From IMG/VR virus record IMGVR_UViG_3300020388_000009: a stretch of DNA of 64,000 bases. One strand, 5' to 3'. Made by a program: the position numbers and the translations under genes. The notes beneath the pieces are model-generated. The model was not told the DNA's origin. It did not search any database and worked only from the letters and a program-made list of their open reading frames with translations. The DNA is from a virus (Duplodnaviria > Caudoviricetes). Position 1 is the stretch's first letter, and each line of letters opens with the position of its first letter. Below are positions 5,786 through 40,210 of the stretch, piece by piece.

Positions 5786-5794
5786 ATTATACTT

Positions 5795-5822: not shown

Positions 5823-5824
5823 AA

Positions 5825-8697: not shown

Positions 8698-9703
8698 TTT
8701 CAACTCCATTTAAGTTCGCGAACATGTTATACCAATACATGCATACATTTTCATATGAGTACATCTCTACTAATTTTTTTCTAGCATTTTCTAAAATATG
8801 TAAATAATCGTTATAATTTCCTAATACCTTTTCAATTGTTTCATTTAAATCTGACCAATCAGGTTTTACTGGAATATACGTTTCCCATGGTTTATAAAAA
8901 TCTGGTTTTGTTATTACTTTACTCATATCTGGCTTTATTAATAATGAACCGTGTTGAATGATTTCTAAATCACGGTAACAAACTTCGCATTGACCATATG
9001 GTGATATTCCTATTTTAGATCGACTCATTATGTCAGTCGTTACCTGTGGATGTAACTTTTCAGCTACTATTTTATATTTATTTGATATTTTATTTAACTC
9101 ATTCCATGCACCTAATCTATGATTAGTATATAATGCACCACTCTCAACAGCGTCAAACTCCCATGCTTCACCTGGATGATAAGTTTGCCATACAGCGCAG
9201 ATATCTAAATCTTTTTCTTTGATAGGCCGCAACTGTTGCATTTGTGGCCAATTATGACATACCGTATATCCTAATAAATTAATACGGGCATATTCTTCAT
9301 CGGATATATCATAACCTTTATCTAATTTAGATCCATTTCCAAAAAACCATTTACCAGCCGCAGTCGGTTCTTTATAATCTTGTTGTGATAGCATAGATTT
9401 TTTAAGCAACGATATCGCATTCGATTCTTTAAGAACTTCATAGGCACCTACTATATCAGTCGCGCCGCCGCCATGGACTAGAAAATAATCTCCAGATTTA
9501 TTAGCTAATGCATTTATCCCTAACTCTATACTCTCTTCTAATGGTTTCCTTTTAAACATCCATTGATTCATATCAATTAATTCATAATCATAATCATTAG
9601 AATTAGTTAATTGTATACTGTATTGAGGTAACATGTTTTGTGCAATTAGTAATGCACCAAAACATTTAATGTTTTTTGGGTCTGATAATTTTACTTTAAT
9701 CAT
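8687..9703 (-). CDS. Putative GT-B glycosyltransferase (paralogue of 7672..8697)
   Basis: SKIGISPYGQCEVCYRDLEII...ETYIPVKPDWSDL; shares GDYFL, GAYEV and CMYWYN with the neighbour. Confidence 0.7.
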   Translation of the reverse strand: MIKVKLSDPKNIKCFGALLIAQNMLPQYSIQLTNSNDYDYELIDMNQWMFKRKPLEESIELGINALANKSGDYFLVHGGGATDIVGAYEVLKESNAISLLKKSMLSQQDYKEPTAAGKWFFGNGSKLDKGYDISDEEYARINLLGYTVCHNWPQMQQLRPIKEKDLDICAVWQTYHPGEAWEFDAVESGALYTNHRLGAWNELNKISNKYKIVAEKLHPQVTTDIMSRSKIGISPYGQCEVCYRDLEIIQHGSLLIKPDMSKVITKPDFYKPWETYIPVKPDWSDLNETIEKVLGNYNDYLHILENARKKLVEMYSYENVCMYWYNMFANLNGVENES

Positions 9704-9716
9704 TAACTATACTTTT

Positions 9717-10349
9717 TTATATTGTATCATAAAATTTATTCTGCTCTTCTTGCCTTCCTATATCCTTTGCATGGTATAACGCATATTTTTCCTCGGCTGG
9801 TAAGTTAGCAAATTTAGTATATCCTTTCAATTGTTCATGTACGGGCTTTATCCAATATATATGTTCTGAATTTTTATATAATCGCATTTGCCAGTCCGGA
9901 AAGTTTACCCAATTGTTCTCATCTACGCGCCAGCCCCATTTTTGTATATGAGAATCTGTGATGCCTGCTACTGTATTCACTCTTGGTATCCAATAAGCCT
10001 CTGTATCTGGATTAGCTTCTAAAATAAATGGGAGTGCTTCAATGAGGTATTCGTTTGGTAGTTCATCTGCATCAATTTGAAATATCCAATCTCCTTTACA
10101 ATTTGAATTCAATTTATTTTTATATTGAGCAAAGTTTTTATTTAATGCATATGAATAATGATGATAACCGGCGTATTGAACCTTGCTTTCATGACTTTCT
10201 AATACATCATAAACTTCTACTGTAGTTTTACCGTTATCTGTCTGTACTACAATTTCATCCTGTTCTCGTTTATGTTTTATCAGAAATTGTAATAATTTAT
10301 CTAACTCTTTATGTTCATTCCAAGCAGTAATTGCATAACTAATCTTCAT
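9717..10349 (-). CDS. Glycosyltransferase family 2
   Basis: ISYAITAWNE, GDWIFQIDADE, VHEQL. Confidence 0.88.
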   Translation of the reverse strand: MKISYAITAWNEHKELDKLLQFLIKHKREQDEIVVQTDNGKTTVEVYDVLESHESKVQYAGYHHYSYALNKNFAQYKNKLNSNCKGDWIFQIDADELPNEYLIEALPFILEANPDTEAYWIPRVNTVAGITDSHIQKWGWRVDENNWVNFPDWQMRLYKNSEHIYWIKPVHEQLKGYTKFANLPAEEKYALYHAKDIGRQEEQNKFYDTI

Positions 10350-10818
10350 TATTTACCTCCAATACTATCGAATACAGTTCATCTAATGCGGCTTTAAAGT
10401 TATACTTGCCATATGTCTTAGCATTATCAACATCTAGCCTTGAAGGAAAATATTCACCAGGTTTATTTGGTATTGGATATTTTAATTGTTCTTCTTCATT
10501 CATGTCAATAACAGATGCTATTTTCCATACAAGTTCATTATCCTTAGGCTCGCAGTATATCATACCACCGGGTAAATTTATAAAAGTAGGATACCATACA
10601 CATCCCAATTCTATATCAACATGTTTCATTTCACTCATATACTCGGTAATAGTTGATTCAAATTTTGTAATATGATCAGAATTAATTTTTAGATAATCAT
10701 TAGTTGTATATCCAGATTCCATGCATATACGCGATTCAATATTTGTATTTTCATCAGCCTCTATTAATACACATTTATTACCTGTGATAGGTGATATTTC
10801 ATCGTAATTTAAATTCAT
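10339..10818 (-). CDS. Hypothetical protein (159 aa)
   Basis: Coupled ORF between glycosyltransferases; SPITG...CMESGY; no function recognised. Confidence 0.7.
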   Translation of the reverse strand: MNLNYDEISPITGNKCVLIEADENTNIESRICMESGYTTNDYLKINSDHITKFESTITEYMSEMKHVDIELGCVWYPTFINLPGGMIYCEPKDNELVWKIASVIDMNEEEQLKYPIPNKPGEYFPSRLDVDNAKTYGKYNFKAALDELYSIVLEVNNED

Positions 10819-12137
10819 GCTTCTACCTTTTTAAGTTTTGGTAAATTTATTTTTGGTGACCCTACCTTTTTAAGTTTTGGTAAATTTAAAGACATTTGTT
10901 GAGGTACTGTCTGTAATCCGGTATCTACAATCTCGCAAAATTTTTCTGACATTAAATCTAGATTAAAATTAGTTTTTACATGATGAGATTGTTTTCTAGC
11001 TTTAGTTAAATATTGCTTGTAATCAGATACACAGTCTTGTAATACACGAACTGCATAACCATAATCAACAGTAAACCACGTCGAATCTTTCAATATAAAA
11101 TTATCTATAACAGAATTATGTACTGGAGTTTGTTCACCTGGTAATAATGTACAATAATCTTTATGTAAAAAATCTAAATGACCTGACCAATTACTAGCAA
11201 TAATTGGCTTACCAGTAATACCAAATTCTAATAAAGGTCGACCAAATCCTTCACCTTTAGTAAATGAAATCATTGCATTAATCTTTGGATGATTGTATAA
11301 TGAATTCATTTCTTCATCGGTTAAGTCTCCATGCAGTAAATAAATGTTTGGAGCTTTATTACCATATGGCTCCATAATCTGCTGAACTTTTTTCATTATC
11401 TCATCACGATCAATAATTGAAAATGTTGCATGCGATGTTTTTAAAATTAATGCTGGTCTATTTTTAGGCATTTTATTTTTAAATGACTCACAGAACGTTT
11501 TGATCATCATTCCAACATCTTTTCGATCCTGCCCCATAGCACCTTTTAACCAATGCCCGGTATATAAAAAACAAAAGTCATCTTTAATATCCTTTAATTC
11601 GGATAACACTGTATCATGAATTTTAGTTGTTTTCTTGTATACGTTTAAATCTAATCCTTCAAATAAAACTTGAATAGGCTTATTTAATCGTAATTCACCA
11701 GTTTTTTGCTTTGTTTTTTCATCAATTGCATCATATACAGTGTTTACAAATCCATCTTTAGAATGTTCAGATGTTACAATATTCATATCCATACGGTTAC
11801 ATCCTTCAATCCATTCATGTGCTACTCTGTTTGTTTCTATACCAGCTGTTATGCCTATGTTATATTTTCCAAGAGCTTGAAATTCATTTGGTACAGAAAT
11901 TTGTATAAATACATCTGGCTTCCTATTAATATTTTGTGTTGCAATTCTATCAATTATTGCTTTATGATTAGGATCTTCTACAAGTAATGCATTAGTGGGA
12001 CATGATCCCCATGGCAATGATACAATTTGAATATCATATTTATTTGCTTTAATTAAAGCTGTTACTAAATCTCTTGTATGGTTTCCATAACCTGACCGAG
12101 TTGAAACTGGTCCTTGTACTACTATAAATGGTTTCAT
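10815..12137 (-). CDS. Glycosyltransferase family 4 (GT-B)
   Basis: TRSGYG, DRKD, KGEGFGRPLLE (EX7E), SGHLDF. Start at 12137 by TAATG coupling. Confidence 0.88.
   Translation of the reverse strand: MKPFIVVQGPVSTRSGYGNHTRDLVTALIKANKYDIQIVSLPWGSCPTNALLVEDPNHKAIIDRIATQNINRKPDVFIQISVPNEFQALGKYNIGITAGIETNRVAHEWIEGCNRMDMNIVTSEHSKDGFVNTVYDAIDEKTKQKTGELRLNKPIQVLFEGLDLNVYKKTTKIHDTVLSELKDIKDDFCFLYTGHWLKGAMGQDRKDVGMMIKTFCESFKNKMPKNRPALILKTSHATFSIIDRDEIMKKVQQIMEPYGNKAPNIYLLHGDLTDEEMNSLYNHPKINAMISFTKGEGFGRPLLEFGITGKPIIASNWSGHLDFLHKDYCTLLPGEQTPVHNSVIDNFILKDSTWFTVDYGYAVRVLQDCVSDYKQYLTKARKQSHHVKTNFNLDLMSEKFCEIVDTGLQTVPQQMSLNLPKLKKVGSPKINLPKLKKVEA
10823..10888. repeat. Perfect 27-bp direct repeat (10823-10849, 10862-10888) encoding NLPKLKKV twice
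   Basis: ctacctttttaagttttggtaaattta occurs twice with a 39-bp period. Confidence 0.9.
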
Positions 12138-13594
12138 TATACTACAACTCCTGGATTTTCTATTTTCTTTTCTTGTTCTATTTTGTACATGGTAAATCGC
12201 TTTCTTGGCGTCCATTTTTCTAAACATGTATTAATACAATTGGCCATTAATTTACTCATACCAGTCGCTGACATGTTTGATTCATCTCCGCAAACCCAAT
12301 CATGACCTACTCGACCATTAGACTCACGGTCTGCTTTTTCCATATCATACCAATAATACATTGCATCTGCAACATCGCGGAAATCAACTCTATCATCAAA
12401 TATATAAGGAGTCATAGGCGATCCTTGTAATGACCGATTAGTCGGGAATACTGGCTTTACCCACTCAGCATGCACTTTATATGTTCCGTCATGATTAGAA
12501 GGAAAATGAGTATCAAATTCAATCCAATCACCTGTTGCATTTTCAAATCTACAACCATCTTGCAATCCACCGGTTACATTATTAATAATCGGAGTGCCGG
12601 CATGTAATGATTCACACCAAGATATCCCAAAACCTTCATTGGATGCAATATTAACAGTTACATCGGCCATGTTATAATAATAATTTAAGACACGAGTATC
12701 CACTGCCTTATCGCTAAAGATTATTTTATAGTCTGGGCATAATGCTTTCTTAACTGCAAATAAATCAGTACCATTATCATCTCTTATCTGAGTATGCATG
12801 AACAATGCACATTTACTAGACTTTTCTTTTGGTAATTTATCACAAAATTCTTTATAAGCGATAATTAAATCACCTGGCTGTTTTCTTCTAATATTTCTAT
12901 TGTTCCAGAAAAATATAAAATCAACATCATTAGTCTTTTTAAATTCATTTGAAAATTTTTCAAATTCATTATATTCTTTATGTAATGATGTAATTGGAAA
13001 AAATTTGTTAACATTTACTCCATGTGGTACCCATTGTACAGCCCAGTCTGGTTTTGGGAATTTTTGTAATACATTTTTTACAATATTATTTGTTTGTCTG
13101 GAAATGTTCATTAACAGATCACATGATTCATAAAAAGGTTCATTCCAATGTGGATATGGAAGATCATCCCAAATATTGTAATACATGATTGGAACATGTT
13201 GCCGAATTTGATGTTCTATTTGATATAACCAGCCCCAAAACCTAGGATCGGTAAAATGTAGAATAGCATCAGGCTTCTCTATGTTCATTATCTGTTGCAA
13301 TATATTTGCATTACCATAACCATCACATGGATATATTTTTAAGTACGCATCATCAACGCCAATTTCTTTACGAACGTCATTAGATAAATCTAAAACTTTA
13401 CCAGATTCTGGATGTTTAATTGCCGCGCCAAGTTGACACCAATCATATTGGTCTAATGTGCCCATTACAAATTCACGAGACATTGTACCAATTCCGGAAT
13501 GCATTCGTAAATCATCTGATAATAATAATATTTTTTTCTTTTTTTGTTTGTTAGGATCTATCTTCCTAAGCTTAGGTAACTTTATTGGTTCCAT
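12137..13594 (-). CDS. Glycosyltransferase family 4 (GT-B)
   Basis: LLLSDDLRMHSGIG, NNRNIRRKQ, SNEGFGISWCE (EX7E), TGGLQD. Confidence 0.88.
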   Translation of the reverse strand: MEPIKLPKLRKIDPNKQKKKKILLLSDDLRMHSGIGTMSREFVMGTLDQYDWCQLGAAIKHPESGKVLDLSNDVRKEIGVDDAYLKIYPCDGYGNANILQQIMNIEKPDAILHFTDPRFWGWLYQIEHQIRQHVPIMYYNIWDDLPYPHWNEPFYESCDLLMNISRQTNNIVKNVLQKFPKPDWAVQWVPHGVNVNKFFPITSLHKEYNEFEKFSNEFKKTNDVDFIFFWNNRNIRRKQPGDLIIAYKEFCDKLPKEKSSKCALFMHTQIRDDNGTDLFAVKKALCPDYKIIFSDKAVDTRVLNYYYNMADVTVNIASNEGFGISWCESLHAGTPIINNVTGGLQDGCRFENATGDWIEFDTHFPSNHDGTYKVHAEWVKPVFPTNRSLQGSPMTPYIFDDRVDFRDVADAMYYWYDMEKADRESNGRVGHDWVCGDESNMSATGMSKLMANCINTCLEKWTPRKRFTMYKIEQEKKIENPGVVV

Positions 13595-13653: not shown

Positions 13654-13872
13654 TTATTGCTTTTTTAAGTTAATTATCCCATATACGTTTATTGCAATTA
13701 TCACTAAACTTAATACTAAATGGCTAAAATTAGTAATGTAGAAGTCATATGTAATCCAACCAATATCACCAACTATCCATGTTATCATAGCATAATGAAA
13801 TTTACCTTTGGCATTAAGACCAAATCCTATTAACACTAACGCTGTACTTATCCAACCTAAAATTTCTATCAT
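13654..13872 (-). CDS. Small membrane protein (three hydrophobic segments, PnuC-like fragment)
   Basis: LGWISTALVLIGFGL, AMITWIVGDIGW, LVLSLVIIAINVYGI. Confidence 0.6.
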   Translation of the reverse strand: MIEILGWISTALVLIGFGLNAKGKFHYAMITWIVGDIGWITYDFYITNFSHLVLSLVIIAINVYGIINLKKQ

Positions 13873-14270
13873 ACAATAATTGTTACTGGTTTATTTAATT
13901 TTTTAGCTTTTTTAATTGCACTCATCGATCCATTAGATGATTCTTGTTCACTAATAAATGCTATCATGACATCACAATCTCGCGCAATCAACATGTTGCG
14001 ATGATGAAATTGTGATACATGATATGGTTTACCGTAATAATCATCTGACATAGCAGAGTATAAATTTTTAGTAGTATGTGCTGGATTAAATTCTTTATAT
14101 CGAATTCCAAATTCTAATGCATACTTTCTTGCAAATTTATCTGCTCCGTATTTAGCACCACCAGATATTATTATTAAATCTGAGCCAAACTTTTGTTTTA
14201 ATTGAAATAAAGTATCCTTTATACGACGTATATTTGCATAATCTCTACTTCCAATTAACGCAACTTTCAT
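13869..14270 (-). CDS. SLOG superfamily (YspA/DUF2493-like) protein
   Basis: VALIGSRDY, IISGGAKYGAD, RNMLIA, SNGSMSAI. Confidence 0.8.
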   Translation of the reverse strand: MKVALIGSRDYANIRRIKDTLFQLKQKFGSDLIIISGGAKYGADKFARKYALEFGIRYKEFNPAHTTKNLYSAMSDDYYGKPYHVSQFHHRNMLIARDCDVMIAFISEQESSNGSMSAIKKAKKLNKPVTIIV

Positions 14271-15468: not shown

Positions 15469-15497
15469 AATATAAGAAATATTTTTCAAAGTACCAA
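15469..15497 (-). promoter_or_regulatory. Sigma70-like promoter TTGGTA-N17-TATATT (probably leaderless transcript)
   Basis: -10 lies 6 nt from the ATG at 15462; no SD. Confidence 0.75.
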
Positions 15498-15498
15498 A

Positions 15499-15894
15499 TT
15501 ATTTACCCCAAATCTTTTTGGAAACTATTTGTGCTATCACTCCGTATATAGATAAATCTTGAAATGTATCTGTCTCGGCTTCTCCTACTTCGTCGCGATG
15601 TCCTAGCACAATTAACTGTTTCAGTCGTTGAACTTTATCATTAACTCTAAACCATAACCCTGTCAATGATAATTTAACATCATCATTAGTTTCTAAATTT
15701 GTACCTACAGATATATTACCAGGTCCATAATTTTTTTGTTTTTTGCAAAATAATACATATTGCTCATTCTGTATACGTTTAAATTCTGTACACGTCTTTG
15801 GATATTGGAGTTCACAATACTTAACTGCATCGGGTGTTTCAATTTCAATCGATTCTTTAAAATCTACACGAGGTCTATCTTTAATTGTTTTCAT
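15499..15894 (-). CDS. DUF1599/Nmad1-like nucleotide-modification-associated protein
   Basis: KKQKNYG...RVNDKVQRL...DTFQDLSIYGVIA pattern. Confidence 0.65.
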   Translation of the reverse strand: MKTIKDRPRVDFKESIEIETPDAVKYCELQYPKTCTEFKRIQNEQYVLFCKKQKNYGPGNISVGTNLETNDDVKLSLTGLWFRVNDKVQRLKQLIVLGHRDEVGEAETDTFQDLSIYGVIAQIVSKKIWGK

Positions 15895-16337: not shown

Positions 16338-17984
<1,647 letters not shown>

Positions 17985-17991: not shown

Positions 17992-18020
17992 AATATAAGA
18001 AAAATATTTCATTGTACCAA
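17992..18020 (-). promoter_or_regulatory. Sigma70-like promoter TTGGTA-N17-TATATT for groEL
   Basis: Exact match to the repeated motif. Confidence 0.75.
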
Positions 18021-18021
18021 A

Positions 18022-18261
18022 TTATTCTTCTTTATTGTTTGTAGATATTTTTGTGTATCGGATTCCTAATTCTTTTATCTCGTAATGAAATCCTTGATTG
18101 CTATTCATATTAAGTATGTTTACCATTTCCTCTGCCGATTCTAATCTATCAAATTCTAATGGATGGTCTTCATTATCCATCATTAAAACAGGGAGAGCTT
18201 TATTTGAATTACCATCAGGATTTCGATGATATTTAATTAGTATGAATATCCGGTCTTTCAT
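18022..18261 (-). CDS. Hypothetical protein (79 aa)
   Basis: TAATG-coupled to the clamp loader; fills the gap. Confidence 0.6.
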   Translation of the reverse strand: MKDRIFILIKYHRNPDGNSNKALPVLMMDNEDHPLEFDRLESAEEMVNILNMNSNQGFHYEIKELGIRYTKISTNNKEE

Positions 18262-19190
18262 TATTTTAACTCATTTAACATTTTTACAATTGTAGACATG
18301 ACATGTAATTCCTTATCAACTGCAAATGAATCCTGGTATTGGGATTCTGCTAATATTAAAATAATACTTGCAATATGCCCAGTTGCATAATTGTCTATTT
18401 CATCAAACAAATATTTATGTAAAGCTGTAAAATCTTTGACTTTACTATCTGCAATTAATTTTCTAATGTCTTTAAATGCAGTCTTCTTATCACTTCCAGA
18501 TTTTAAAATATCTAACAACTTGGTCATATAATTTGCTTGTATAACACTAGTTGCATCTATCTTTAATTCATTATCTATTACTTGTCTCTGACAGCTATTT
18601 AATACCCGTCTTATATCCGGATAGCCGGCGTTTATAATAGTAACAAGGTCTTTGTTATCATATTTAACTTGTAATTCGTTAAGGATTTCAACTATACGTT
18701 TAGCGACTTCTTTTTTATTAGGCGGCGTTATACCAAAGACCTGACAACGTGATTGTATAGGGTCTATAATCTTTTCAACGTAATTACATGTTAAAATGAA
18801 TCTTGTAGTCTTAGAAAATGTTTCCATTAAATTACGTAATGCAGCCTGACCATTAGGAGTCATGTAATCTGCTTCATCTAATATAACAATCTTCCATTTT
18901 TTAAATCCAATAGTACTAGCATAATTCTTTATCTTAGTACGTACTGTTTCCACATTGTTTTCATCTGATGCATTAATATACATGATATCAGCATCTAACC
19001 CATTTGCTATAATCTTTGCAAGAGTGGTCTTACCAGTTCCTGCCTGACCATAAAATAATAGATGTGGTACATCACCATTTTCCAAATATAACTTAACTTT
19101 ATCTATGATATGTTCATTACCCACATATCCTTCTAACGTACCAGGTCGAAACTTTTCAACCCATAATGTATTTTCTTGATTTCCAAACAT
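18261..19190 (-). CDS. Clamp-loader AAA+ subunit (T4 gp44/RFC-like)
   Basis: WVEKFRP, GQAGTGKT, NASDE, DEAD, SRC. Confidence 0.95.
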   Translation of the reverse strand: MFGNQENTLWVEKFRPGTLEGYVGNEHIIDKVKLYLENGDVPHLLFYGQAGTGKTTLAKIIANGLDADIMYINASDENNVETVRTKIKNYASTIGFKKWKIVILDEADYMTPNGQAALRNLMETFSKTTRFILTCNYVEKIIDPIQSRCQVFGITPPNKKEVAKRIVEILNELQVKYDNKDLVTIINAGYPDIRRVLNSCQRQVIDNELKIDATSVIQANYMTKLLDILKSGSDKKTAFKDIRKLIADSKVKDFTALHKYLFDEIDNYATGHIASIILILAESQYQDSFAVDKELHVMSTIVKMLNELK

Positions 19191-19196: not shown

Positions 19197-19634
19197 TTAA
19201 TTACCTGTTGAACCATAACCACCTTCTCCTCTAGAACTATCAGCTAAATTATCAGCTTCTTCTAATTCTATATTTGGATATGGCATTATAACTAATTGAC
19301 CGACTCTATCACCATCTTGATATCGTTTAACATTCGCGAAATAACTATCGCTATCAAATTTATACCTGAAAGTTATTTCTCCTCTATATCCAGAATCAAC
19401 AACTCCTACACAATTTGCTAAACTCACATCTTTTTTTGATACGGATGATCTTGGAAATAATAATCCTACATGACCTTCCGGAACTTCAAATGCTAGACCG
19501 GTATGGTATTCTATAAAATTATGCTCTGTATTTATTTTATGAGCAATTGCAGTTATATCCATTCCAGCGTCTCCTGGTTTAGCATAACTAGGAGTAATTG
19601 CTGTATCAACTAATTTTTTAAATTTTACTTTCAT
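19197..19634 (-). CDS. dut: Trimeric dUTPase
   Basis: AGMD, PRSS, GVVDSGYRGEI, RGEGGYGSTG. Confidence 0.96.
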   Translation of the reverse strand: MKVKFKKLVDTAITPSYAKPGDAGMDITAIAHKINTEHNFIEYHTGLAFEVPEGHVGLLFPRSSVSKKDVSLANCVGVVDSGYRGEITFRYKFDSDSYFANVKRYQDGDRVGQLVIMPYPNIELEEADNLADSSRGEGGYGSTGN

Positions 19635-19635: not shown

Positions 19636-20352
19636 TTATGCAGCTTGTAATTGTACTAAATAATATGTAGATGAATATGCACTTCCTTTAAAGGTTACTC
19701 TGGCTAAACCTGCTTGAGATACTTCGATATAACCTTCTTCTGCATCTTTATTTGCAGATAAAATTTCTTTAAACAAATTAGCAGAAAAACATGTTGCACT
19801 TAACTCTTCAGATTTATCAGGTGTTACTGCCCATGTAATTCTATTGGTATTCAAAGTAGAATAATTTAAAATCATTTTAGTTCCTGCCTCTCCACTTTCA
19901 ACTGCAAAGTTTTCGGTTTCTGGCAATGCATTTTTTGATTTGATAAATTTATCTGCAAAATCTTTAGTTAATTTAATTTTAACACCAAAATCAGGAAGAC
20001 CTTTCATTTGAGGAACTTGTCTAATCACAGACATGTCTGCTAACATAAACGTTACCTTTGTTGATATATCTGATATGTTAATTGAAAATGCGGCATCGTC
20101 TGCTCTATTAACTTTGATATCAATTTTATCATCTAAAGCCGTTAACAGTTTTGTTAATTGAGATGTATTATATACACCCAATCTAACGTCTTCAATATCA
20201 AAATCTTGCATTGTAACTCTACCTACAACGTTTTGATCATCTGTAATAAATTCACATGACAATACATCATCTTTAACATCTAAACCTACCGAATTAGCAT
20301 TCCCTGCTAAATGATATTTTTCAATAAAATTAGTTAGTTTTCTCTTTTCCAT
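19636..20352 (-). CDS. Probable sliding clamp (T4 gp45-like)
   Basis: About 238 aa, beta-rich, GVYNTSQL, GLARVTF...YYLV; beside the clamp loader. Start MEKRKL at 20352. Confidence 0.7.
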   Translation of the reverse strand: MEKRKLTNFIEKYHLAGNANSVGLDVKDDVLSCEFITDDQNVVGRVTMQDFDIEDVRLGVYNTSQLTKLLTALDDKIDIKVNRADDAAFSINISDISTKVTFMLADMSVIRQVPQMKGLPDFGVKIKLTKDFADKFIKSKNALPETENFAVESGEAGTKMILNYSTLNTNRITWAVTPDKSEELSATCFSANLFKEILSANKDAEEGYIEVSQAGLARVTFKGSAYSSTYYLVQLQAA

Positions 20353-20362
20353 TTGTTCTCTT

Positions 20363-21547
20363 TTATTCGAAGAATTGATTAAATACTTCATTATTTACTA
20401 AATCTCTTGTACTACCACCAAACCTATCATATAATTGTCTATTTTTATTATAGATATGAATAGCTTTATCTGGATCTTTAAACATTTCTTCCATACTCAT
20501 TAATATTGAATAGAAATCTCTAGGGACCACTGTTTGTAACAATTCGTTATGACATTTCACAATTTCTTCTACTTGTTTAACAGTATCATTAAATACAAAT
20601 AAATTGTTCAACGTCATCTTCATTGTAACATCACCTTTATAATTAGACACATCTCCAAAAGTAAATCCTTCTGATACTGGATGTCCTAATGGGTTAGGAA
20701 CTAAATCATCTGCGTTATAAGGTAGATTTTCTCCTTTAGGAAAATATAAATCCGTAAAGGTCATTTTACTTAATTGAGGAGAATGAAGATAAGTTCCATA
20801 TACAGGATATAAACCTGGTGATGATGAATCTGTTGATATCTGTATACGACCTCCATGATATTTGTTTACCATTTTCTGGAAGAAACTTAACATAAAGAAA
20901 TCGGATATCTTAGATATACCTAATACATGAATAAATTGGTTACGAGCTTTTTCAAATTCTCTATTTTTAATCATAGGAACTAATGCAGACATAAACATTG
21001 TAACACGCTTTTGAGCACCACCAATACACCATCCATTAAATTCAAAGTCTTTCATTTTCTGATACCATGCTTCATATTCTTCAACATTATTACCTTGAAT
21101 AACATTTAAGAACTTACATTTACCAGTTTGGTTATCTGCAAAGTATTTGAAATTATCATAGCTAATATCCATACATTCGTAAAACTTTCCATCATACTTT
21201 GCACGTGGTGGAATATCTAAATTTACTCCTAAATCACAATTGGCTTCTAACCAATCAAATATAGTTTTCTTGAATGATGGATCCCATTTAATGGCACCGG
21301 TAGCTAACTGGAATCCTCCAGAATCTCCTAATACTAATACATCATCTTCTAATCCATATCTATCTCTAGCATCCATCCATTTGTAATGATGTCCTGCCGT
21401 AATTAGGAAATATGGGTGTCTCCATGGTTCTGGAAACTCTTTATCATAAAATCTACATGTAAGTCCAGGCTTAACTTCTTTGTTCTTCTTGAAGTCTCCT
21501 GCACATCCTCCTGCAGATAATGATGGGTAATAAATTAAATCTTTCAT
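20363..21547 (-). CDS. dpdA: TGT/DpdA-family guanine transglycosylase (probable DNA 7-deazaguanine insertase)
   Basis: DSGGFQ, NLD, NVIQG, IGG, HVLG, STDSSS in TGT-barrel order; lies in the replication operon near folE/queD/queE. Confidence 0.82.
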   Translation of the reverse strand: MKDLIYYPSLSAGGCAGDFKKNKEVKPGLTCRFYDKEFPEPWRHPYFLITAGHHYKWMDARDRYGLEDDVLVLGDSGGFQLATGAIKWDPSFKKTIFDWLEANCDLGVNLDIPPRAKYDGKFYECMDISYDNFKYFADNQTGKCKFLNVIQGNNVEEYEAWYQKMKDFEFNGWCIGGAQKRVTMFMSALVPMIKNREFEKARNQFIHVLGISKISDFFMLSFFQKMVNKYHGGRIQISTDSSSPGLYPVYGTYLHSPQLSKMTFTDLYFPKGENLPYNADDLVPNPLGHPVSEGFTFGDVSNYKGDVTMKMTLNNLFVFNDTVKQVEEIVKCHNELLQTVVPRDFYSILMSMEEMFKDPDKAIHIYNKNRQLYDRFGGSTRDLVNNEVFNQFFE

Positions 21548-22767
21548 TAAAATAATTCCAATTGAGGTGTTCGTTCTTTTATTTTATTATCAACGTCTTG
21601 ATATAATAATTCTTCGCAATATTCTTTTTCATGCCATACATTGATCTCTTTATCATAGTCACGCGCTATAATATATCCTTCCATTTTTCTACCTAGGTCA
21701 GATGTTTCACTGATATCAAAATGTCTTCTAGGATTAGCAATTGCCGTTTCCAATGTATCTACTGCTGATTGTAAATCAAATGGTTTATACAATCTATCTT
21801 GATCGATAAATTCTGGGAAACTTCTAAAATCTGGGAACACTATATCAGCACCAAACATAGTCGATTCAATTACTGTCCATGATACATAATCTTGTAGTGA
21901 TGAATTAAACTGCACTCTACAAGTTGACAATTCTATATAATATTCTTCTTTAGTTAATCCAGATAACAATTTGAATCTAGGCTGTTCTTTTGCCATTTCA
22001 TTTAACGCATCCATAACACCGGGTAACATACTTCTAAATGATTTACCAGATGTAGTAACATGCCATTCATAATCTGGATTTTCATTTAGAAATTCTTCAG
22101 CTACACGCATCATGAAGAAAGGATTCTTTTCTTTATCTAATCGAGATGAATATACAATTACATTTTTCTTTTCTACTTCATCGCCATTAGCTGTATACCA
22201 ATCCTTTAGTACGCCACATGCTTGTTTTAAATGTATTGGCAATGATACAACATGTATAGGAGCTTCAAATCCTGCTTCACGAAGTTGTTCTTTATGAACC
22301 GTACTTCCAACAAATATACCAGTTAATCGTTTATCTAATCCTAATTCATAAGGTCGCATCCAATCACGCATTGGATAAGTGAAATCATATTCATCAACTG
22401 ATTGTGCATGACACATTGTATATACTTTTATATCTTTATAGCCATACAGGTCTAATGCATACCATATGGCTTCGACTCCTGGTGTCCAATAGTCTTGCAA
22501 GAATATTATATCACCGTCTTGTACTTTATCGTTATACAGTAGATTTAAGAAGTTTTGGCATTGAGATAAACTGTATTTACCTCTACCAATTGCATCTAAT
22601 ACCGCGCCAACTTTGATTTCACAATCTGGGTCAAAGTCTCCTTCAATATCTACAAAGTTAAGATCAGGATATTCTGCAAATGTTTTTGGCATCCATTCTT
22701 TACATAACTGATATGTATATCTAGCCTTTAAAGGTTCAAGGCCAAAATAAAATAAATTTCTTTTCAT
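21547..22767 (-). CDS. GT-B-fold glycosyltransferase coupled to dpdA
   Basis: SSRLDKEKNP, LQDYVSWTVIES (EX7E-like), FPDFRSFPE; TAATG overlap with dpdA. Start MKRNLF at 22767. Confidence 0.8.
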   Translation of the reverse strand: MKRNLFYFGLEPLKARYTYQLCKEWMPKTFAEYPDLNFVDIEGDFDPDCEIKVGAVLDAIGRGKYSLSQCQNFLNLLYNDKVQDGDIIFLQDYWTPGVEAIWYALDLYGYKDIKVYTMCHAQSVDEYDFTYPMRDWMRPYELGLDKRLTGIFVGSTVHKEQLREAGFEAPIHVVSLPIHLKQACGVLKDWYTANGDEVEKKNVIVYSSRLDKEKNPFFMMRVAEEFLNENPDYEWHVTTSGKSFRSMLPGVMDALNEMAKEQPRFKLLSGLTKEEYYIELSTCRVQFNSSLQDYVSWTVIESTMFGADIVFPDFRSFPEFIDQDRLYKPFDLQSAVDTLETAIANPRRHFDISETSDLGRKMEGYIIARDYDKEINVWHEKEYCEELLYQDVDNKIKERTPQLELF

Positions 22768-22768
22768 A

Positions 22769-23188
22769 TTACTCTTCTGTTCTATCAAATTTATAATCAT
22801 CTGGATTAATTTCCATCATATTGCATTTTGTAATCTGATGCACTCTATACCATCCAGCATCAATTGATAATGTATCTGTATTCTTTAATTTGGCAACAAA
22901 TTCATCTTGTATTCTATATATAACATGTGCTCTATTAAAGATAGACATTGGAATCTTAGCCATAGTTTTTGAATTGGCTTCAACAGTTACATATTGCCGC
23001 GTCTCTAAAATATTATGAATATCATCCCAATTACCATGGGTACAACACATTTCAATATATTCAATTGTAAAATATACATGAGGATATTCTTTATAATTTT
23101 TAGGTAATTGACCTCTAACAAAAACCGTTTCGATATCAGACAATCTGCCTTCTACCTCTTTACCATACCAGTAACTTTTTCCGTACAT
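22769..23188 (-). CDS. Hypothetical protein, first gene of the GT-dpdA cassette
   Basis: 139 aa (WYGKEVEG...ETVFVRG...HVYF); follows a promoter; 1 nt from the GT start. Confidence 0.75.
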   Translation of the reverse strand: MYGKSYWYGKEVEGRLSDIETVFVRGQLPKNYKEYPHVYFTIEYIEMCCTHGNWDDIHNILETRQYVTVEANSKTMAKIPMSIFNRAHVIYRIQDEFVAKLKNTDTLSIDAGWYRVHQITKCNMMEINPDDYKFDRTEE

Positions 23189-23207
23189 ATCTTTTTTATT
23201 TTTATTT

Positions 23208-23236
23208 AATATAAGAAATCTTTTTTAGATAACCAA
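23208..23236 (-). promoter_or_regulatory. Sigma70-like promoter TTGGTT-N17-TATATT for the unknown-GT-dpdA-clamp-dut-loader unit
   Basis: Match to the repeated motif. Confidence 0.75.
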
Positions 23237-23237
23237 A

Positions 23238-25715
23238 TTAAAATGAGAAAAACTTTCCTAAATTATTATTTTCTGGAATCAATCCCCAATTCATAGCACT
23301 ATAAAAATCATTTAACTTATTTGCAAACGCCGATTTAAATACTTTGTCATAATCTATATGACCTTGTACAAAATCTGCCAATGGTTTAGGATCATCATAA
23401 CCTTTTAATGCCATTGTATCTAATCCCATAGGATTGTTTTTAAGATATGTCCACTTAATTTTTTCTCCATTTATAATACCACGTATAGTTTTAACTTTAT
23501 GATGTTTCAACATATCATTATAATTTAATGCAGACTTCACATGGACCGGAGTTCCTTTCATACGTACTGCAAATGGTTTATCGCCCTTACGTATATACTT
23601 TTTAATATTTTTAACTCCTATAGGAAACATAACATCTATCAATTCCAACGTCTTCATATGTTCTTTAAAGTCTAATATTTTTTGATCTAATGCAGGCTTA
23701 TCAATATCATTCAACATATCTTCTAATACCTCAGCCATAAACTTTCTAAATGAAGGCGGAAATGATGATCGCACCACATCTAAGCCTTTGACATCTAGTT
23801 TTGATACTGTATGGCCTTCAACATTAATTATCCATTGAGCGTATCGTTTTTTGGCTATCCATAGACCTGCCTTTGCAACATTCTCTTTCTTGATATCAAA
23901 ACGATGTTTATCAACATTATGAAATTTCTTACCATATATATCATATGATTTATTCATAAAGCTTTGAACCTCATCTGCAATTTCAATAGTTTTATCAGAC
24001 ATCCATTTTTCATCAGTAATATCATAACCCGGATACCGTTTTTCTATTAATGGTAATGATGAAAAGAATACAGAATCTGTATCAATGTATATATTATAAT
24101 CTTTCTTTTTGCCTAACTCTTTAAAATAAAACTGGTTGCCTATATCAGCTGTGAACTTAATTAATTGCTGCCCAGTACTTGTAATTGCAATTGCATTATC
24201 TGGATCGAAGAATCGGAAACTAGGGTTACCTAATACTCCATAGAATGAATTCAAAAGAATTTTAGTTACCAACTGCATTCTATCAAAATATTCTGCCTTA
24301 GCATCATCTCCTTCCTTTTCATACTTCTTACGAAGATTTTTATATTCAACACGTTCATTGAACCATTTATCTAGTATAGATGGTAAAAATCCTTTTATCT
24401 GCGTATCATATACAACTCCATTAGCTGCTACAGAATATTTATTTGATTCCAAATAATTTCTTAGATCTTGAGATGTTTCCCAACCATTCCAGCCATCCGA
24501 ATAATGAGTACCAGTATTCTTAACGTAACCTTTAGGATCAAATTTTTCTAACTTAGTTACTTTGGTTTCTGGTGATATGTTAAGTGTCATGATGATACTA
24601 GGATATAGTGATGTTAAATCAAGGTCATATACCCATTTATAACGACCTGCATTTGGTGGTTTAACATATGCCCCTAATAAATTTAATTCTTCATTAGATC
24701 TAGGAGGACGGCTAGGTGATACAATATTCATACGTTTCATATATGTCAATGCCGCACCATCTAAGTATCTAGTTGGAAATAAGAAGTCTTCGTAAGGAAC
24801 ATGCCCTTTATGACATATACCACGAGCCAAATCAATCAGCTTCATTTTTTGATCAATTTCCCAAACCAAATCCACATCATTCATGTTATAATCAATGTAA
24901 CCTTGAATATCATTACGCATAAGATCATCTAAAGTACCTTCATACTTCATTTTACCTTTACCTAATTCTTTTTGAGATATAGCTTCTAATGAATAACTAG
25001 ATTCTTGAGAATATGTAAAGTTCTTATACAATGCCATATAATCTAAACATGATACTCCAGATATACGGTATCTATTTCTATGCTTTAGCCAAATAACGTC
25101 TTTGATAGGAGATAATGATCTTGCTTGTTCTTCACCTAATATCTGAACCATACGATTATAAAGATAAGGAATATCAAAGAAATCAATGTTCCATCCAGTT
25201 ATAATAGTAGGTTGTATTTCATAATATTTGTATAAGAATTTTTGTAATAAAGTATGTTCATTGCTACATGATACTACTTCATACCCAGGCTTAGATACAT
25301 TTTCAACTACCTGATCTTTATCCAATATCCATACATACCTTTGGTCACCAGCTTCATCATATATTGCAATTGAAGTTACTTCATTCTGAGCCTCTTCTGG
25401 AGTTGGAAATCCATTTGCAATATCTACCTCAATATCAATGAACAATGTTCTATGACCTACTGATGATTCATCTGAATCTGTATACGTATCAATTAAAGTG
25501 CGCATTTCCGGATTGATATCAGCCTCATATAATCCAGTTTCTTCGCGATCCGGATTATCAACGCGTTGCACAGTTTGCCCATCTAACGCAACCATATTTC
25601 CATATGTAGCTTTACGATATGCATATGGTTTATAATTAATAGTGAAATGACCTTTCTTATCATCCCAAATATGTACCTTATTAGTACGTTTATGATATGC
25701 TACTGCTTGATACAT
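23238..25715 (-). CDS. polB: DNA polymerase family B with 3'-5' exonuclease
   Basis: DIEVD, GWNIDFFD, YNMND, DLTSLYPS, KILLNSFYG, YIDTDS, KKRY, KGLD. Confidence 0.97.
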   Translation of the reverse strand: MYQAVAYHKRTNKVHIWDDKKGHFTINYKPYAYRKATYGNMVALDGQTVQRVDNPDREETGLYEADINPEMRTLIDTYTDSDESSVGHRTLFIDIEVDIANGFPTPEEAQNEVTSIAIYDEAGDQRYVWILDKDQVVENVSKPGYEVVSCSNEHTLLQKFLYKYYEIQPTIITGWNIDFFDIPYLYNRMVQILGEEQARSLSPIKDVIWLKHRNRYRISGVSCLDYMALYKNFTYSQESSYSLEAISQKELGKGKMKYEGTLDDLMRNDIQGYIDYNMNDVDLVWEIDQKMKLIDLARGICHKGHVPYEDFLFPTRYLDGAALTYMKRMNIVSPSRPPRSNEELNLLGAYVKPPNAGRYKWVYDLDLTSLYPSIIMTLNISPETKVTKLEKFDPKGYVKNTGTHYSDGWNGWETSQDLRNYLESNKYSVAANGVVYDTQIKGFLPSILDKWFNERVEYKNLRKKYEKEGDDAKAEYFDRMQLVTKILLNSFYGVLGNPSFRFFDPDNAIAITSTGQQLIKFTADIGNQFYFKELGKKKDYNIYIDTDSVFFSSLPLIEKRYPGYDITDEKWMSDKTIEIADEVQSFMNKSYDIYGKKFHNVDKHRFDIKKENVAKAGLWIAKKRYAQWIINVEGHTVSKLDVKGLDVVRSSFPPSFRKFMAEVLEDMLNDIDKPALDQKILDFKEHMKTLELIDVMFPIGVKNIKKYIRKGDKPFAVRMKGTPVHVKSALNYNDMLKHHKVKTIRGIINGEKIKWTYLKNNPMGLDTMALKGYDDPKPLADFVQGHIDYDKVFKSAFANKLNDFYSAMNWGLIPENNNLGKFFSF

Positions 25716-26221
25716 TAATTAATCTTATATATATTTCTATAATTTCTTTTCAACGAATTATCATCTAATCCGTACCCTACTACCCATTCTTTATCAATTT
25801 CAAAACAAAAATGATCTACTGGTGGGCTATCTTCTTTACGTTTGAGTAATGTAACTACCTTTACCTCATCAGGTGTCATATCATCGACACGTCTTAATAT
25901 TTCTGCCATAGTTGCGCCGGTATCTACAATGTCATCGATAATATAAACACGTTTACCTTTACAATGAATTTCTAAATCTTTAGTGATATTAACTCCTCCA
26001 GAATTATCTTGACCTTCATATGATTTAGCTCGAATAAAATCCATTTGCACATCAATACCCATATCTTTCATTAGGTCTGCAAAAAATGCATAACCGCCAT
26101 TTAGTACACATATCATTACAGGTGGATATGAATTTCCAGAAGCTTTATGTTCTTCCGATATTGCATGTGCTAAAGCACGAACACGACGTTCTATTTTATA
26201 TTCTGGTATTAGAATTTCCAT
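25715..26221 (-). CDS. hpt: Hypoxanthine/guanine phosphoribosyltransferase-like protein
   Basis: VLNGG..FFADL, IIDDIVDTGAT PRPP loop, VVGYGLD. Confidence 0.9.
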   Translation of the reverse strand: MEILIPEYKIERRVRALAHAISEEHKASGNSYPPVMICVLNGGYAFFADLMKDMGIDVQMDFIRAKSYEGQDNSGGVNITKDLEIHCKGKRVYIIDDIVDTGATMAEILRRVDDMTPDEVKVVTLLKRKEDSPPVDHFCFEIDKEWVVGYGLDDNSLKRNYRNIYKIN

Positions 26222-26880
26222 TAATATCCTTTTATAAATTCATAATACTCTGCTCTTGTAGAAGGATCATTTTTAAATGCACCAGTTAACTTACTAGTCT
26301 TCATACTTGCACCGCCATGTTTAACACCTCTACATTGTACACAATTATGAGATGCATCAATCATTACTGCTACACCTGCATTATCTTCGATAATAGTATT
26401 CACTGCATGATGAATTGCAACTGTCAATTGTTCTTGTATAGCACCTCTTCTACCAAAATGTTCTACCAATCTATTTAATTTAGATAAACCAATCACATGA
26501 CTATCTTTACCAGGAATATATGCAACATGTACTATACCCATAATAGTTTGATGATGATGAGAACACATCGAAGTTAATGGAATGCCACCTTCAAATACCA
26601 TACCATCATATCCATCACTTGGAAATGTTGTTATTGCAGGAGGAGCTTCATATCTTCCTGCCCATAAATCATTTACATATGCTTTTGCAACTCTATAAGG
26701 AGTTTTATCTGAATTAGGATCTTCTCTCCAATTCACTTTCAATGCATCTAAAAATTGTCCAAATGCTAATTCAGCATCGGCAATCATTGCTTGTTTTTCA
26801 CTCTCTGTTAAAGGACGTCCTTCAGCTGCTCCATTTGCATATCCGGCCTTTACTAGTTCTATATTTATCGAGTTTTTCAT
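26221..26880 (-). CDS. folE: GTP cyclohydrolase I
   Basis: TPYRVAK, SMCSHH, GLSKLNR, QEQLT, HNCVQCRG. Confidence 0.96.
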   Translation of the reverse strand: MKNSINIELVKAGYANGAAEGRPLTESEKQAMIADAELAFGQFLDALKVNWREDPNSDKTPYRVAKAYVNDLWAGRYEAPPAITTFPSDGYDGMVFEGGIPLTSMCSHHHQTIMGIVHVAYIPGKDSHVIGLSKLNRLVEHFGRRGAIQEQLTVAIHHAVNTIIEDNAGVAVMIDASHNCVQCRGVKHGGASMKTSKLTGAFKNDPSTRAEYYEFIKGY

Positions 26881-26881
26881 T

Positions 26882-27184
26882 CTAAACCTTTTCTGTTGAT
26901 ACCATTACTATTTCTGATTCTCTGAGAAGTACATATGTATCTTCTTCTAATTTAATCTGATTATGCTGTTTAGCAGATTGATTAGTTACCATAACCGTAT
27001 CACCTACTTTTACCGTTACTGGAATACGATCACCCGTCTGCGTAAATAATCCAGGTCCGGCAGCAACTACATCTGCTTGAACATGATTTGTAGTATTACT
27101 AGTTAAAATAATACCACCTTTGGTCGTTTCTTGACCTTCATGAGTTTTTAGGAGTACAAAATCTCCCATTGGTTTCATTTTCAT
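26882..27184 (-). CDS. groES: Co-chaperonin GroES
   Basis: KPMGDFVLL, TKGGIIL, VVAAGPG, VKVGD, LLRESEI. Confidence 0.93.
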   Translation of the reverse strand: MKMKPMGDFVLLKTHEGQETTKGGIILTSNTTNHVQADVVAAGPGLFTQTGDRIPVTVKVGDTVMVTNQSAKQHNQIKLEEDTYVLLRESEIVMVSTEKV

Positions 27185-27195
27185 ATAACTTTCCT

Positions 27196-27969
27196 TTAAA
27201 CTGCTCGTTCTGTATCAAATGCAATGATATGATCTCTACCTGTCATGTTATAACCATGTTCGGCACATAATTCAAACACCATTGGATACATTTTAATTAA
27301 TTGTTCTCGCGTATCACCCGCCGGCATAATATATGTTTTATTTTTAGGTATTCCTAATTCAACTCTATATGATTCTATTTCATGTAAATTTTCTTGAGTA
27401 CCATCCCATACTGGTTTATAATGGTAATCTGAATGAAAACTAATCATTTGGTTAATGGCATCCGTATTCATTCGTCGTTTATTGTGAATATCGATAAATC
27501 GTTGGTCAACAACCGTACCACCAGGAGTAACAGCCCCAATAACAGGAACGGAATTACTAAACTTAGGACTAAGGCTAATAAGATCAATAGGATAATCGGT
27601 TTCAACAAAATGTGATCCTTCAGTTTCAATAGTAATAATAATACCTCTTTCATGTGCAAAATGTGTTAATTCATTTACCAATGCAGGCTGCATTGTAGGA
27701 GATCCGCCGGTTAGCATCATTTCTTTTATATGTGGATTCTCATCATATATTTTAATTATATCATTAAAAGAATATTTACCTTTTTCTGGATGTATTGAAG
27801 AATACCAGGAATCACACCAACCTCCTTCTCCAAAATAACATCTATGAGTACAACCTGTAGTTCTGATTGCTATCGTTGGTCTACCAAATCTACTACCTTC
27901 TGATTGTACACATCTATATAATTCGTTGATAGGGAGTACCTTATCATAATTTTTTATTCGTTTATTCAT
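27196..27969 (-). CDS. queE: 7-carboxy-7-deazaguanine synthase (radical SAM)
   Basis: VQSEG, RTTGCTHRC-x7-CDS, LTGGSP, IETEG, SLSPK. Confidence 0.9.
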   Translation of the reverse strand: MNKRIKNYDKVLPINELYRCVQSEGSRFGRPTIAIRTTGCTHRCYFGEGGWCDSWYSSIHPEKGKYSFNDIIKIYDENPHIKEMMLTGGSPTMQPALVNELTHFAHERGIIITIETEGSHFVETDYPIDLISLSPKFSNSVPVIGAVTPGGTVVDQRFIDIHNKRRMNTDAINQMISFHSDYHYKPVWDGTQENLHEIESYRVELGIPKNKTYIMPAGDTREQLIKMYPMVFELCAEHGYNMTGRDHIIAFDTERAV

Positions 27970-27972
27970 AAC

Positions 27973-28461
27973 TTATTCCATGTATATTGATGAATTTCTA
28001 TCAGCTTCCCAACATTCTACTTTTACTACCTTTACTCTACCACCACCTGTTAATGCCATTCGTTCGTTAAATTTATCGTAAACTAATTTAGCACAAGATT
28101 CAGCTCCCATTTTATCCATAACTCGTAAAGATAATGTACCTAATTCTTCCATCATTTGAAACGATTCTAGTTGAGGATCATCTTTCTCTATTAAACATGT
28201 ATGATCCCACATATAGTTCATCCAATCTTTTAATCCATTACCAGGAGTTGGCTCTGCATCTGTTGATTTGAATCCACCATAATCCATAATCCAATTCATT
28301 TCATCTAATTGGTTTTCTTCTAGCGGCTCATGTGATTCAAACCATACTTTAAATTTTAAAGCATATCCATGTAATAATTCGCAATGTGAATGAGCAGCTT
28401 TATGTTGTCGCAATGCTACCGAATAATTATCGAATACTTTAGTTGATTGATACTTTCCCAT
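27973..28461 (-). CDS. queD: 6-carboxy-5,6,7,8-tetrahydropterin synthase (QueD/PTPS)
   Basis: HCELLHGY, WIMDYG, WDH, AE, VECWE..NS. Start MGKYQ at 28461. Confidence 0.88.
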   Translation of the reverse strand: MGKYQSTKVFDNYSVALRQHKAAHSHCELLHGYALKFKVWFESHEPLEENQLDEMNWIMDYGGFKSTDAEPTPGNGLKDWMNYMWDHTCLIEKDDPQLESFQMMEELGTLSLRVMDKMGAESCAKLVYDKFNERMALTGGGRVKVVKVECWEADRNSSIYME

Positions 28462-28968: not shown

Positions 28969-29000
28969 ATAAATATAAGAAATATATTTGACTCTACCAA
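28969..29000 (-). promoter_or_regulatory. Sigma70-like promoter TTGGTA-N17-TATATT overlapped by ATATTTAT; heads the queD..polB unit
   Basis: -35 at 28995-29000, -10 at 28972-28977, late motif at 28969-28976. Confidence 0.75.
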
Positions 29001-29055
29001 ATCTTTTTATAGCTTTTTCCAGATAAATTCTCTATAATACAAGTCTCGAATCCAA

Positions 29056-35447: not shown

Positions 35448-35476
35448 AATATAAGAAACTTATTTCACTCTACCAA
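35448..35476 (-). promoter_or_regulatory. Sigma70-like promoter TTGGTA-N17-TATATT for ssb-recA-exo
   Basis: Exact match to the repeated motif. Confidence 0.75.
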
Positions 35477-35500
35477 AGGTTTTTTGAAAAAAGTTTAAAT

Positions 35501-40204: not shown

Positions 40205-40210
40205 ATGTAA

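Follow-up and report, generated by a model that had tools for sequence, protein, structure and literature searches.

A GT-B glycosyltransferase tied to 7-deazaguanine DNA modification genes in T4-like and other phages, a candidate for sugar decoration of the modified base

To our knowledge, eight 7-deazaguanine derivatives are known in phage DNA, none of them with a sugar, and sugar decoration is known so far only on hydroxymethyl-pyrimidines; a literature search for glycosylated deazaguanine in DNA found no description of such a base. In Cellulophaga phage phiST, the DNA carries plain dDG (2′-deoxy-7-deazaguanosine), and DpdL, a QueD-like T-fold protein with an LxxxHRHxF motif, was proposed to give dDG by decarboxylating 7-carboxy-7-deazaguanine (CDG) (Cui, Hutinet et al., NAR 2023, PMC10516641). 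The DNA of Pseudomonas phage PA5oct carries an unidentified modified G, to which resistance to several restriction enzymes points (PMC12191111). Here we describe a cassette of three genes, encoding a 139-aa protein (orf139), a glycosyltransferase (GT) and a DpdA-like protein of the tRNA-guanine transglycosylase (TGT) superfamily, in a 64,000-nucleotide stretch of viral DNA (IMG/VR virus record IMGVR_UViG_3300020388_000009; this whole stretch is called the window below). The window is part of a 127,430-bp record with ~31% G+C and an estimated completeness of ~72%. The phage is an uncultured marine T4-like myovirus with genes for a family B DNA polymerase (polB), clamp, clamp loader, gp32, UvsX/RecA, a DnaB-type helicase and ribonucleotide reductase (RNR). 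The GT is strictly linked to 7-deazaguanine genes, and we favor, with moderate confidence, the reading that it attaches a sugar to deazaguanine, as the base itself or at the precursor stage, which would give a sugar-bearing base in DNA.

Every IMG/VR relative whose sequence spans the region keeps the order polB, orf139, GT, DpdA. Deazaguanine genes are carried by 71/71 further GT loci, most commonly as polB-orf139-DpdL-GT-DpdA, and lie alongside GT in all six contigs from metagenome-assembled genomes (MAGs) that encode it. For remote GT representatives (~31-36% identity), DpdL or PTPS adjoins the GT in four of four cases. Over these metagenomic loci together, the GT stands beside DpdL, DpdA-like, FolE, QueD or QueE in 81/81. 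Among cultured phages, it stands beside such genes in 18 records belonging to six unrelated groups with differing gene orders. In PA5oct-group jumbo phages a DpdA-like gene, whose stop overlaps the GT start, is followed by GT, DpdL, an epimerase fragment, a phosphoribosyltransferase (PRTase) and QueE; Acidovorax phage ACP17 has DpdA-GT-DpdL-QueE; Xanthomonas phages X1/BUDD have 143 aa-GT-TGT-DpdL-QueE; Burkholderia phage BCSR5 has a PIG-L deacetylase, an orf139-like gene, GT and DpdA; Cyanophage BUCT-ZZ01 has a second GT followed by DpdA-DpdL-GT; and Sinorhizobium phage Phosso has DpdL-GT...FolE...QueE. Each of the 18 specific GT matches in the phage collection is in a record that also has DpdL. 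The converse does not hold: phiST and its relatives, RHph_I1_18, Ahp1, Bakedbeans, D479 and MA9V-3 have DpdL but not the GT. Hence, the GT is found only with DpdL while DpdL is found also without the GT, a pattern expected of an add-on decoration step. An earlier, sequence-only reading of the window had proposed a sugar-decorated deazaguanine and had named co-occurrence of GT and dpdA beforehand as a check; the outcome agrees with it strongly, the GT lying in 7-deazaguanine clusters in every locus with enough flank and in unrelated lineages. At the DNA level, a search of the cassette against 50,697 phage records gave no match.

FolE, QueD, QueE and DpdL are all encoded in the record, the gene set of the DpdL-type (QueC-less) 7-deazaguanine pathway; QueC was sought in the 127-kb record, ~72% complete as it is, and none was found. 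The first three, which the sequence-only reading had invoked as the source of the base, all lie upstream of polB (26221-28461). Because DpdL is encoded, the expected base is 7-deazaguanine, as in phiST, rather than CDG or preQ0. The sequence-only reading is partly supported: its tie of the GT to deazaguanine genes holds up, and it overlooked DpdL, which stands outside the window, ~41 kb from the cassette and alone among small unknown genes, and with it the expected base. In most relatives DpdL directly precedes GT, and elsewhere it is the tightest GT partner; it has moved out of the cassette in the window's subclade. The locus resembles phiST in FolE, QueD, QueE and a DpdL homologue, in the absence of a detected QueC, and in the position of these genes next to the polymerase; DpdL of L081, a relative in the clade, shares 39% identity with CGPG_00067 of phiST (E 8e-16). 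In contrast, phiST has no GT of this family and no detectable orf139 homologue, and its DpdA3, at 259 aa, has no detectable similarity to the 394-aa TGT-like protein. PA5oct (Wroclawvirus) likewise groups DpdA-like (27% identity), GT (22%), DpdL, PRTase and QueE in one cluster after the polymerase, although it is a jumbo phage of a different family with the order DpdA-GT-DpdL, a DpdA-like protein of 540 aa and no detected orf139 homologue.

The AlphaFold (AF2) model of the GT (pLDDT 93.7, pTM 0.92) has a GT-B fold with two Rossmann-like domains, and its best Foldseek matches are MshA, BshA, OtsA and glycogen synthase (E 1e-14 to 1e-11; identity 12-15%), so that the GT-B assignment of the sequence-only reading holds in the predicted structure. 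MshA and BshA, retaining GT4 enzymes, are the best structural matches (E 1e-14 to 1e-13), but they are only 12-15% identical and belong to thiol biosynthesis, whereas the context here is DNA modification. R209 and K214 (SRxDxEK) and E301 are invariant, and D293 nearly so (D-x7-E), in 40 sequences with 27-51% identity to the window GT; assigned by motif position, these are GT4 donor-binding and E-x7-E-type residues, and by their conservation the GT looks catalytically competent. Pfam Glycos_transf_1 scores 20.8 bits against a cut-off of 26.4, which some relatives exceed (e.g., P0460, 27.7 bits). The family is large and abundant among T4-like phages of sea and fresh water, with 874 matching clusters at 50% identity (E up to 1e-3). 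When 185,579 prokaryote species, each represented by one genome, were scanned with a 10-sequence GT alignment, six short MAG contigs came up, all of phage-type context, and the family appears to be essentially viral. Fusions of GT and DpdA were sought among 150 GT representatives and none was found; the two long homologues are the intein-bearing P0468 and P0460, with an unexplained C-terminal extension. In P0468 (726 aa) the intein (PF14890, E 9e-6) lies within the GT C-terminal domain; inteins are usually found in replication and nucleotide-metabolism proteins. A QLELF tail of the GT is conserved in the closest relatives only. Isoelectric point (pI) and net charge were tried as a test of a DNA versus a small-molecule acceptor and rejected, since the presumed DNA enzyme is likewise acidic.

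The third protein of the cassette is modeled with a pLDDT of 84.6, and its listed Foldseek matches are all tRNA-guanine transglycosylases (best arcTGT 1j2b, E 2.9e-9, probability 1.0), as expected of a TGT-type (β/α)8 barrel. It has the DSGGFQ-type and DSS-type Asp motifs of the DpdA/TGT superfamily; D75 (GDSGGFQ) and D240 (TDSSSP) are invariant in 16 sequences of 49-76% identity and are taken as the TGT catalytic residues from motif knowledge rather than from residue-level superposition. Unlike the known members of that superfamily, it does not match Pfam TGT (PF01702), has lost its zinc ligands and has a polB-like tail. PF01702 is matched by 9 of the 16 relatives (best E 7.6e-7). NCBIfam DpdA gave E 1.3e-3 (17.7 bits against a cut-off of 200) and NCBIfam arcTGT E 1.9e-3, PDB sequence searches with the single sequence and with the family profile gave no match, and hhalign with the family profile gave probabilities of 4% against E. 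coli Tgt and 48% against X1 TGT; the ESM Atlas, a language-model search, places the protein near TGT and DpdA clusters. The sequence searches having been weak, it is the fold search that settles the TGT assignment. Against phiST CGPG_00065 (DpdA3) the family profile reached a hhalign probability of 0.1%, and tblastn (E up to 0.1) found no Cellulophaga, Campylobacter or Flavobacterium phage; therefore, a DpdA subfamily (DpdA1-4) was not assigned. The zinc motif reads VPCSLDCPAC...HN (Cys-x3-Cys-x2-Cys...His) in ~50%-identity relatives, while the window clade retains none of the four ligands, having N, H and S in place of the cysteines and N in place of the histidine. Hence, what had been read as TGT/DpdA keeps, in the model, a TGT fold with both Asp motifs, and is not detectably DpdA3 and lacks the zinc site. 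In T4-like phages, the polymerase tail binds the clamp. The disordered C-terminal tail of the TGT-like protein, FN[KQ]FF (window 20363-20410; F393 invariant, F392 in at least 90%), resembles the polB C-terminal tail LGKFFSF (window 23238-23300), and may bind the clamp and so hold the base-exchange enzyme at the replisome. The polB-like tail, and a gene that abuts the clamp gene, make a location at the fork probable.

Variant cassettes carry further sugar and purine genes, of which the sugar-handling ones count in favor of the reading given below. In 13 related cassettes a TagD/RfaE-type cytidylyltransferase (PF01467, E 2e-11) follows orf139 and precedes DpdL or GT; four loci have a class I methyltransferase separating DpdL from GT; a second GT is present in the BUCT-ZZ01 and L103 cassettes, and an epimerase fragment in that of PA5oct. 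The PIG-L/LmbE-type deacetylase gene that immediately precedes the orf139-like gene, GT and DpdA in BCSR5 (L161:3821-4528; PF02585, E 4.7e-5, below cut-off) has a homologue in X1 (L087:3882-4529). The MshA/MshB pairing, in which transfer of N-acetylglucosamine (GlcNAc) is followed by deacetylation, is mirrored by GT plus PIG-L; by this analogy, PIG-L beside a MshA/BshA-like GT hints at GlcNAc transfer and then de-N-acetylation. A purine-type PRTase also recurs in GT-containing deazaguanine clusters, those of this phage, BUCT-ZZ01 and PA5oct (window 25715-26221, L086:90-551 and L080:9769-10203), and may recycle released guanine or make a deazapurine nucleotide.

The orf139 protein has invariant residues E11, E13, G14, R15, H37, E70, H88 and D105; searches with the single sequence and with a 17-member alignment found no match to it in Pfam, PHROG, NCBIfam, PDB sequences or the ESM Atlas. 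Within the window phage clade orf139 is always upstream of GT. Small genes upstream of GT in X1 and BCSR5 share an EVEGR motif with it and reach hhalign probabilities of 39-59%, and are probably homologous. No orf139 homologue was detected in PA5oct, ACP17, BUCT-ZZ01 or Phosso, so that it is tied to the system less firmly than the GT is. The suggestion that it partners the GT has a basis in gene conservation for the clade, and probably for X1 and BCSR5, and not for those four phages. The idea that the small ORFs next to GT in other phages are all orf139 homologues was rejected; most are DpdL.

Under the reading we favor, FolE, QueD and QueE would convert GTP to CDG, and DpdL would convert CDG to 7-deazaguanine. 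The zinc-less TGT-fold enzyme would swap guanine in phage DNA for 7-deazaguanine, probably at the fork, and the GT4-type GT would transfer a sugar from an NDP-sugar to the deazaguanine, either as free base or precursor before insertion or as the base already in DNA. The glycosylated deazapurine would shield phage DNA from host nucleases. The analysis establishes the gene set, folds, conservation of catalytic residues and close linkage of the GT to DpdL, DpdA, FolE and QueE; the substrate, donor sugar, sugar-receiving atom and biological effect of the GT are all inferred. A fuller version, which is possible and which we hold tentatively, is that the phage DNA carries a glycosylated 7-deazapurine with its sugar on C7 or on a 7-substituent, that lineages differ in the decoration, and that a clamp-tethered transglycosylase takes part; this would be a new class of DNA base. 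One chemically attractive form has the sugar directly on C7, an electron-rich pyrrole carbon in 7-deazaguanine from which DpdL would take off the carboxyl. A further 7-substituent could carry the sugar instead. The embedded cytidylyltransferase, methyltransferase, second GT, epimerase or PIG-L deacetylase would generate the differences among lineages (e.g., from GlcNAc to glucosamine, GlcN), and a transglycosylase tethered to the sliding clamp by its polymerase-like tail would let modification keep pace with replication.

Several points weigh against a sugar on the DNA base. 7-Deazaguanine has no hydroxyl, amine or carboxyl at C7, and so no obvious sugar acceptor. DpdL is not within the cassette in this genome, and with a record ~72% complete QueC or other genes could be missing. 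Gene linkage indicates a common function and not which step the GT performs; that the sugar would end up on DNA is a prediction, and so is the chemistry of the GT. With a pI of 4.8 and a net charge of -23 (family median pI 5.8), the GT is acidic, and the nearest structures, MshA, BshA and OtsA, act on small molecules, not DNA. Moreover, T-even DNA glucosyltransferases are not among the 38 matches listed of the 50 top-ranked by Foldseek, all of which are GT4. The sequence-only reading follows the same logic as the T-even system. T4 α-GT and β-GT, which act on 5-hydroxymethylcytosine (5-hmC), are like the GT here in being GT-B enzymes of T4-like phages that add sugar to an already modified DNA base; specific structural kinship does not appear in the listed matches, and the partner pathway is purine, not pyrimidine. 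No ThyA-like hydroxymethylase was found in the 127-kb record (~72% complete), which thus gives no sign of a 5-hmC or 5-hydroxymethyluracil (5-hmU) acceptor; the GT appears unrelated to that route, and this counts in favor of the deazaguanine reading.

The same structural matches bear on the alternative that the acceptor of the GT is a soluble pathway intermediate, namely free CDG, 7-deazaguanine or a precursor of pterin type, the sugar never reaching DNA and the DNA carrying plain dDG as in phiST; the sugar could then serve transiently as a handle, mark a stored or detoxified form, or belong to a deazapurine metabolite. The small acceptors of MshA and BshA and the acidity of the GT would suit this, as would the recurring PRTases, which could act on deazapurines at the level of nucleotides, in the manner of ToyH and TubE in the biosynthesis of toyocamycin and tubercidin. 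However, a costly side product with no role in DNA is unlikely to stay tied to dpdA and dpdL in many lineages, and phiST and others make dDG without a GT, which is thus not needed for the basic pathway (PMC10516641); we regard this alternative as unlikely. A more distant acceptor, such as a replisome or virion protein or the host envelope, would place the GT in the cassette only through early co-expression with replication genes. Relatives are annotated at source as a "glycosyltransferase involved in cell wall biosynthesis," this phage has a separate large glyco island, and in PhiXhv and Ep032 phages weak GT matches belong to a cluster with GlmS and a deacetylase, at a distance from the DpdA-like gene. 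Yet the neighbours vary among unrelated phages while DpdL, DpdA, QueE and FolE stay by the GT, for which chance or co-expression is insufficient, and such an acceptor seems to us quite improbable.

The PRTases and the loss of the zinc site also suggest another route for the base itself, in which a deazaguanine ribonucleotide made by the PRTase is reduced, phosphorylated and incorporated by polB, with the TGT-like protein and GT as auxiliaries. The hypoxanthine/guanine phosphoribosyltransferase (HPRT) between FolE and polB, the PRTases of the BUCT-ZZ01 and PA5oct clusters, and RNR and dUTPase in the same region as the cassette would all fit. Conversely, the TGT-like protein keeps its two catalytic Asp motifs without variation, HPRT could merely recycle guanine, and HPRT is not in the close relatives L041, L049, L057, L058 and L064, which keep the cassette. 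DpdA is in every deazaguanine phage and post-replicative insertion has been argued (PMC10516641), which also counts against entry through the nucleotide pool, and we think that route distinctly doubtful. The GT-like protein could instead assist the transglycosylase without catalysis of its own, as a scaffold or specificity factor, in line with its translational coupling with the TGT-like gene in this phage and PA5oct and its Pfam score below cut-off; with R209, K214 and E301 invariant and D293 nearly so, and with sugar-activating genes embedded alongside, this is very improbable indeed.

If the GT does decorate the base, the resulting glycosylated deazapurine would count as a new base of DNA, with a bearing on restriction, CRISPR, sequencing chemistry and nucleic-acid biotechnology, as well as on the newly found deazaguanine-directed glycosylases and END nucleases. 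It would also explain the modified G of PA5oct, a therapy-candidate jumbo phage, and the published failure to reconstitute dDG from ACP17 dpdL plus dpdA. Several carriers of the GT family are cultured, so that the idea is directly testable.

The minus strand carries nearly all genes of the record, and the gene layout around the cassette (Table 1) agrees with that described in the sequence-only reading. The GT start codon is one base past the orf139 TAA, the start of the TGT-like gene overlaps the GT stop (TAATG), polB adjoins the unit directly upstream, and the series runs on into clamp, dUTPase and clamp loader. A longer in-frame GT ORF is possible from 22800 and would overlap orf139. No terminator-like site was found on the minus strand between the cassette and the clamp, dUTPase and clamp loader genes. 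The cassette is thus predicted to head the transcription unit of the replication module, from the promoter motif through orf139, GT, DpdA-like, clamp and dUTPase to the clamp loader, with the motif copy upstream of GroEL probably marking its end. The motif at the head, TTTGGT-N13-TTTCTTATATT (30 nt), has six intergenic minus-strand copies in the window; these precede the nuclease gene, GroEL, orf139, a small ORF, gp32 and one further unit, and all stand upstream of replication or early-type units. A looser pattern gave 7 matches in the window against 2.76 expected. Upstream of orf139 homologues, TT[TA]GG-N14-20-TATA[AT]T is kept in 59/66 distinct regions, compared with 0.7% of random 70-nt pieces from the same loci, and it persists even when an extra gene stands between polB and orf139. 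A generic sigma-70 scan did not list the site, and was uninformative in this AT-rich DNA (75 sites against 70.5 expected). On this conservation we accept 23208-23237 as a promoter-type element, in keeping with the promoter earlier placed at 23208-23236.

Table 1. Coordinates of the cassette, its neighbours and related features (window positions unless a locus is named).
Feature	Position	Strand	Evidence or remark
Promoter-like motif, heads cassette	23208-23237	minus	Repeated in window and conserved upstream of orf139
Further motif copies	15469-15498, 17992-18021, 28972-29001, 35448-35477, 40176-40205	minus	Intergenic
orf139 (139 aa)	22769-23188	minus	Unassigned family, 494 homologues
GT4-type GT-B glycosyltransferase (406 aa)	21547-22767	minus	AF2 + Foldseek; Pfam Glycos_transf_1 E 3e-4; ATG at 22767
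DpdA-like TGT-superfamily protein (394 aa)	20363-21547	minus	AF2 + Foldseek; zinc site lost; polB-like C-terminal tail
Sliding clamp	19636-20391	minus	PHROG 223 processivity factor, E 4.8e-8; predicted co-transcribed with cassette
dUTPase	19197-19634	minus	PF00692 E 1.4e-19
Clamp loader large subunit	18261-19190	minus	PHROG 168 E 7.6e-81
GroEL	16338-17963	minus	PF00118 E 1e-71; unit after promoter copy 17992-18021
Family B DNA polymerase (polB)	23238-25715	minus	PF00136, PF03104, PHROG 262 E 3.6e-195; directly upstream of cassette
HPRT	25715-26221	minus	TIGR01203 E 5.6e-43
FolE, GTP cyclohydrolase I	26221-26880	minus	PF01227 E 7.8e-45; NCBIfam FolE E 3.5e-44
GroES	26882-27184		PF00166 E 1e-19; between FolE and QueE
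QueE-like radical SAM, CDG synthase	27196-27969	minus	NCBIfam QueE E 8e-15 to 1e-7 (below cut-offs); Pfam Radical_SAM
QueD-like T-fold protein with CxxxHGY	27973-28461	minus	PF01242 E 2.7e-10; TIGR03367 E 1e-4
DpdL homologue (118 aa), LxxxHRH	G000 C1:9507-9863, outside window	minus	Profile HMM E 3.6e-28
Cytidylyltransferase in related cassettes	L023:1858-2286, L082:8045-8458, 11 other loci		L023 in the window's own subclade
Sugar island GT2 proteins	3179-4090, 9717-10349
Sugar island methyltransferase	4023-4637
Sugar island DegT-type aminotransferase	4634-5785
Sugar island GFO/IDH/MocA oxidoreductase	6046-6711
Sugar island Rossmann oxidoreductase	6702-7742
Sugar island GT1-type proteins, two	10815-13594

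A large sugar island (window 680-13594) resembles NDP-aminosugar synthesis plus transferases, and could be the donor source for the cassette GT. Downstream of the replication unit, a PD-(D/E)XK nuclease is flanked by genes at window 13869-14270 and 15499-15894, whose proteins are a YspA/SLOG-family member (PF10686, E 1e-10) and one with a weak match to DUF1599, "nucleotide modification associated domain 1" (E 5e-4).

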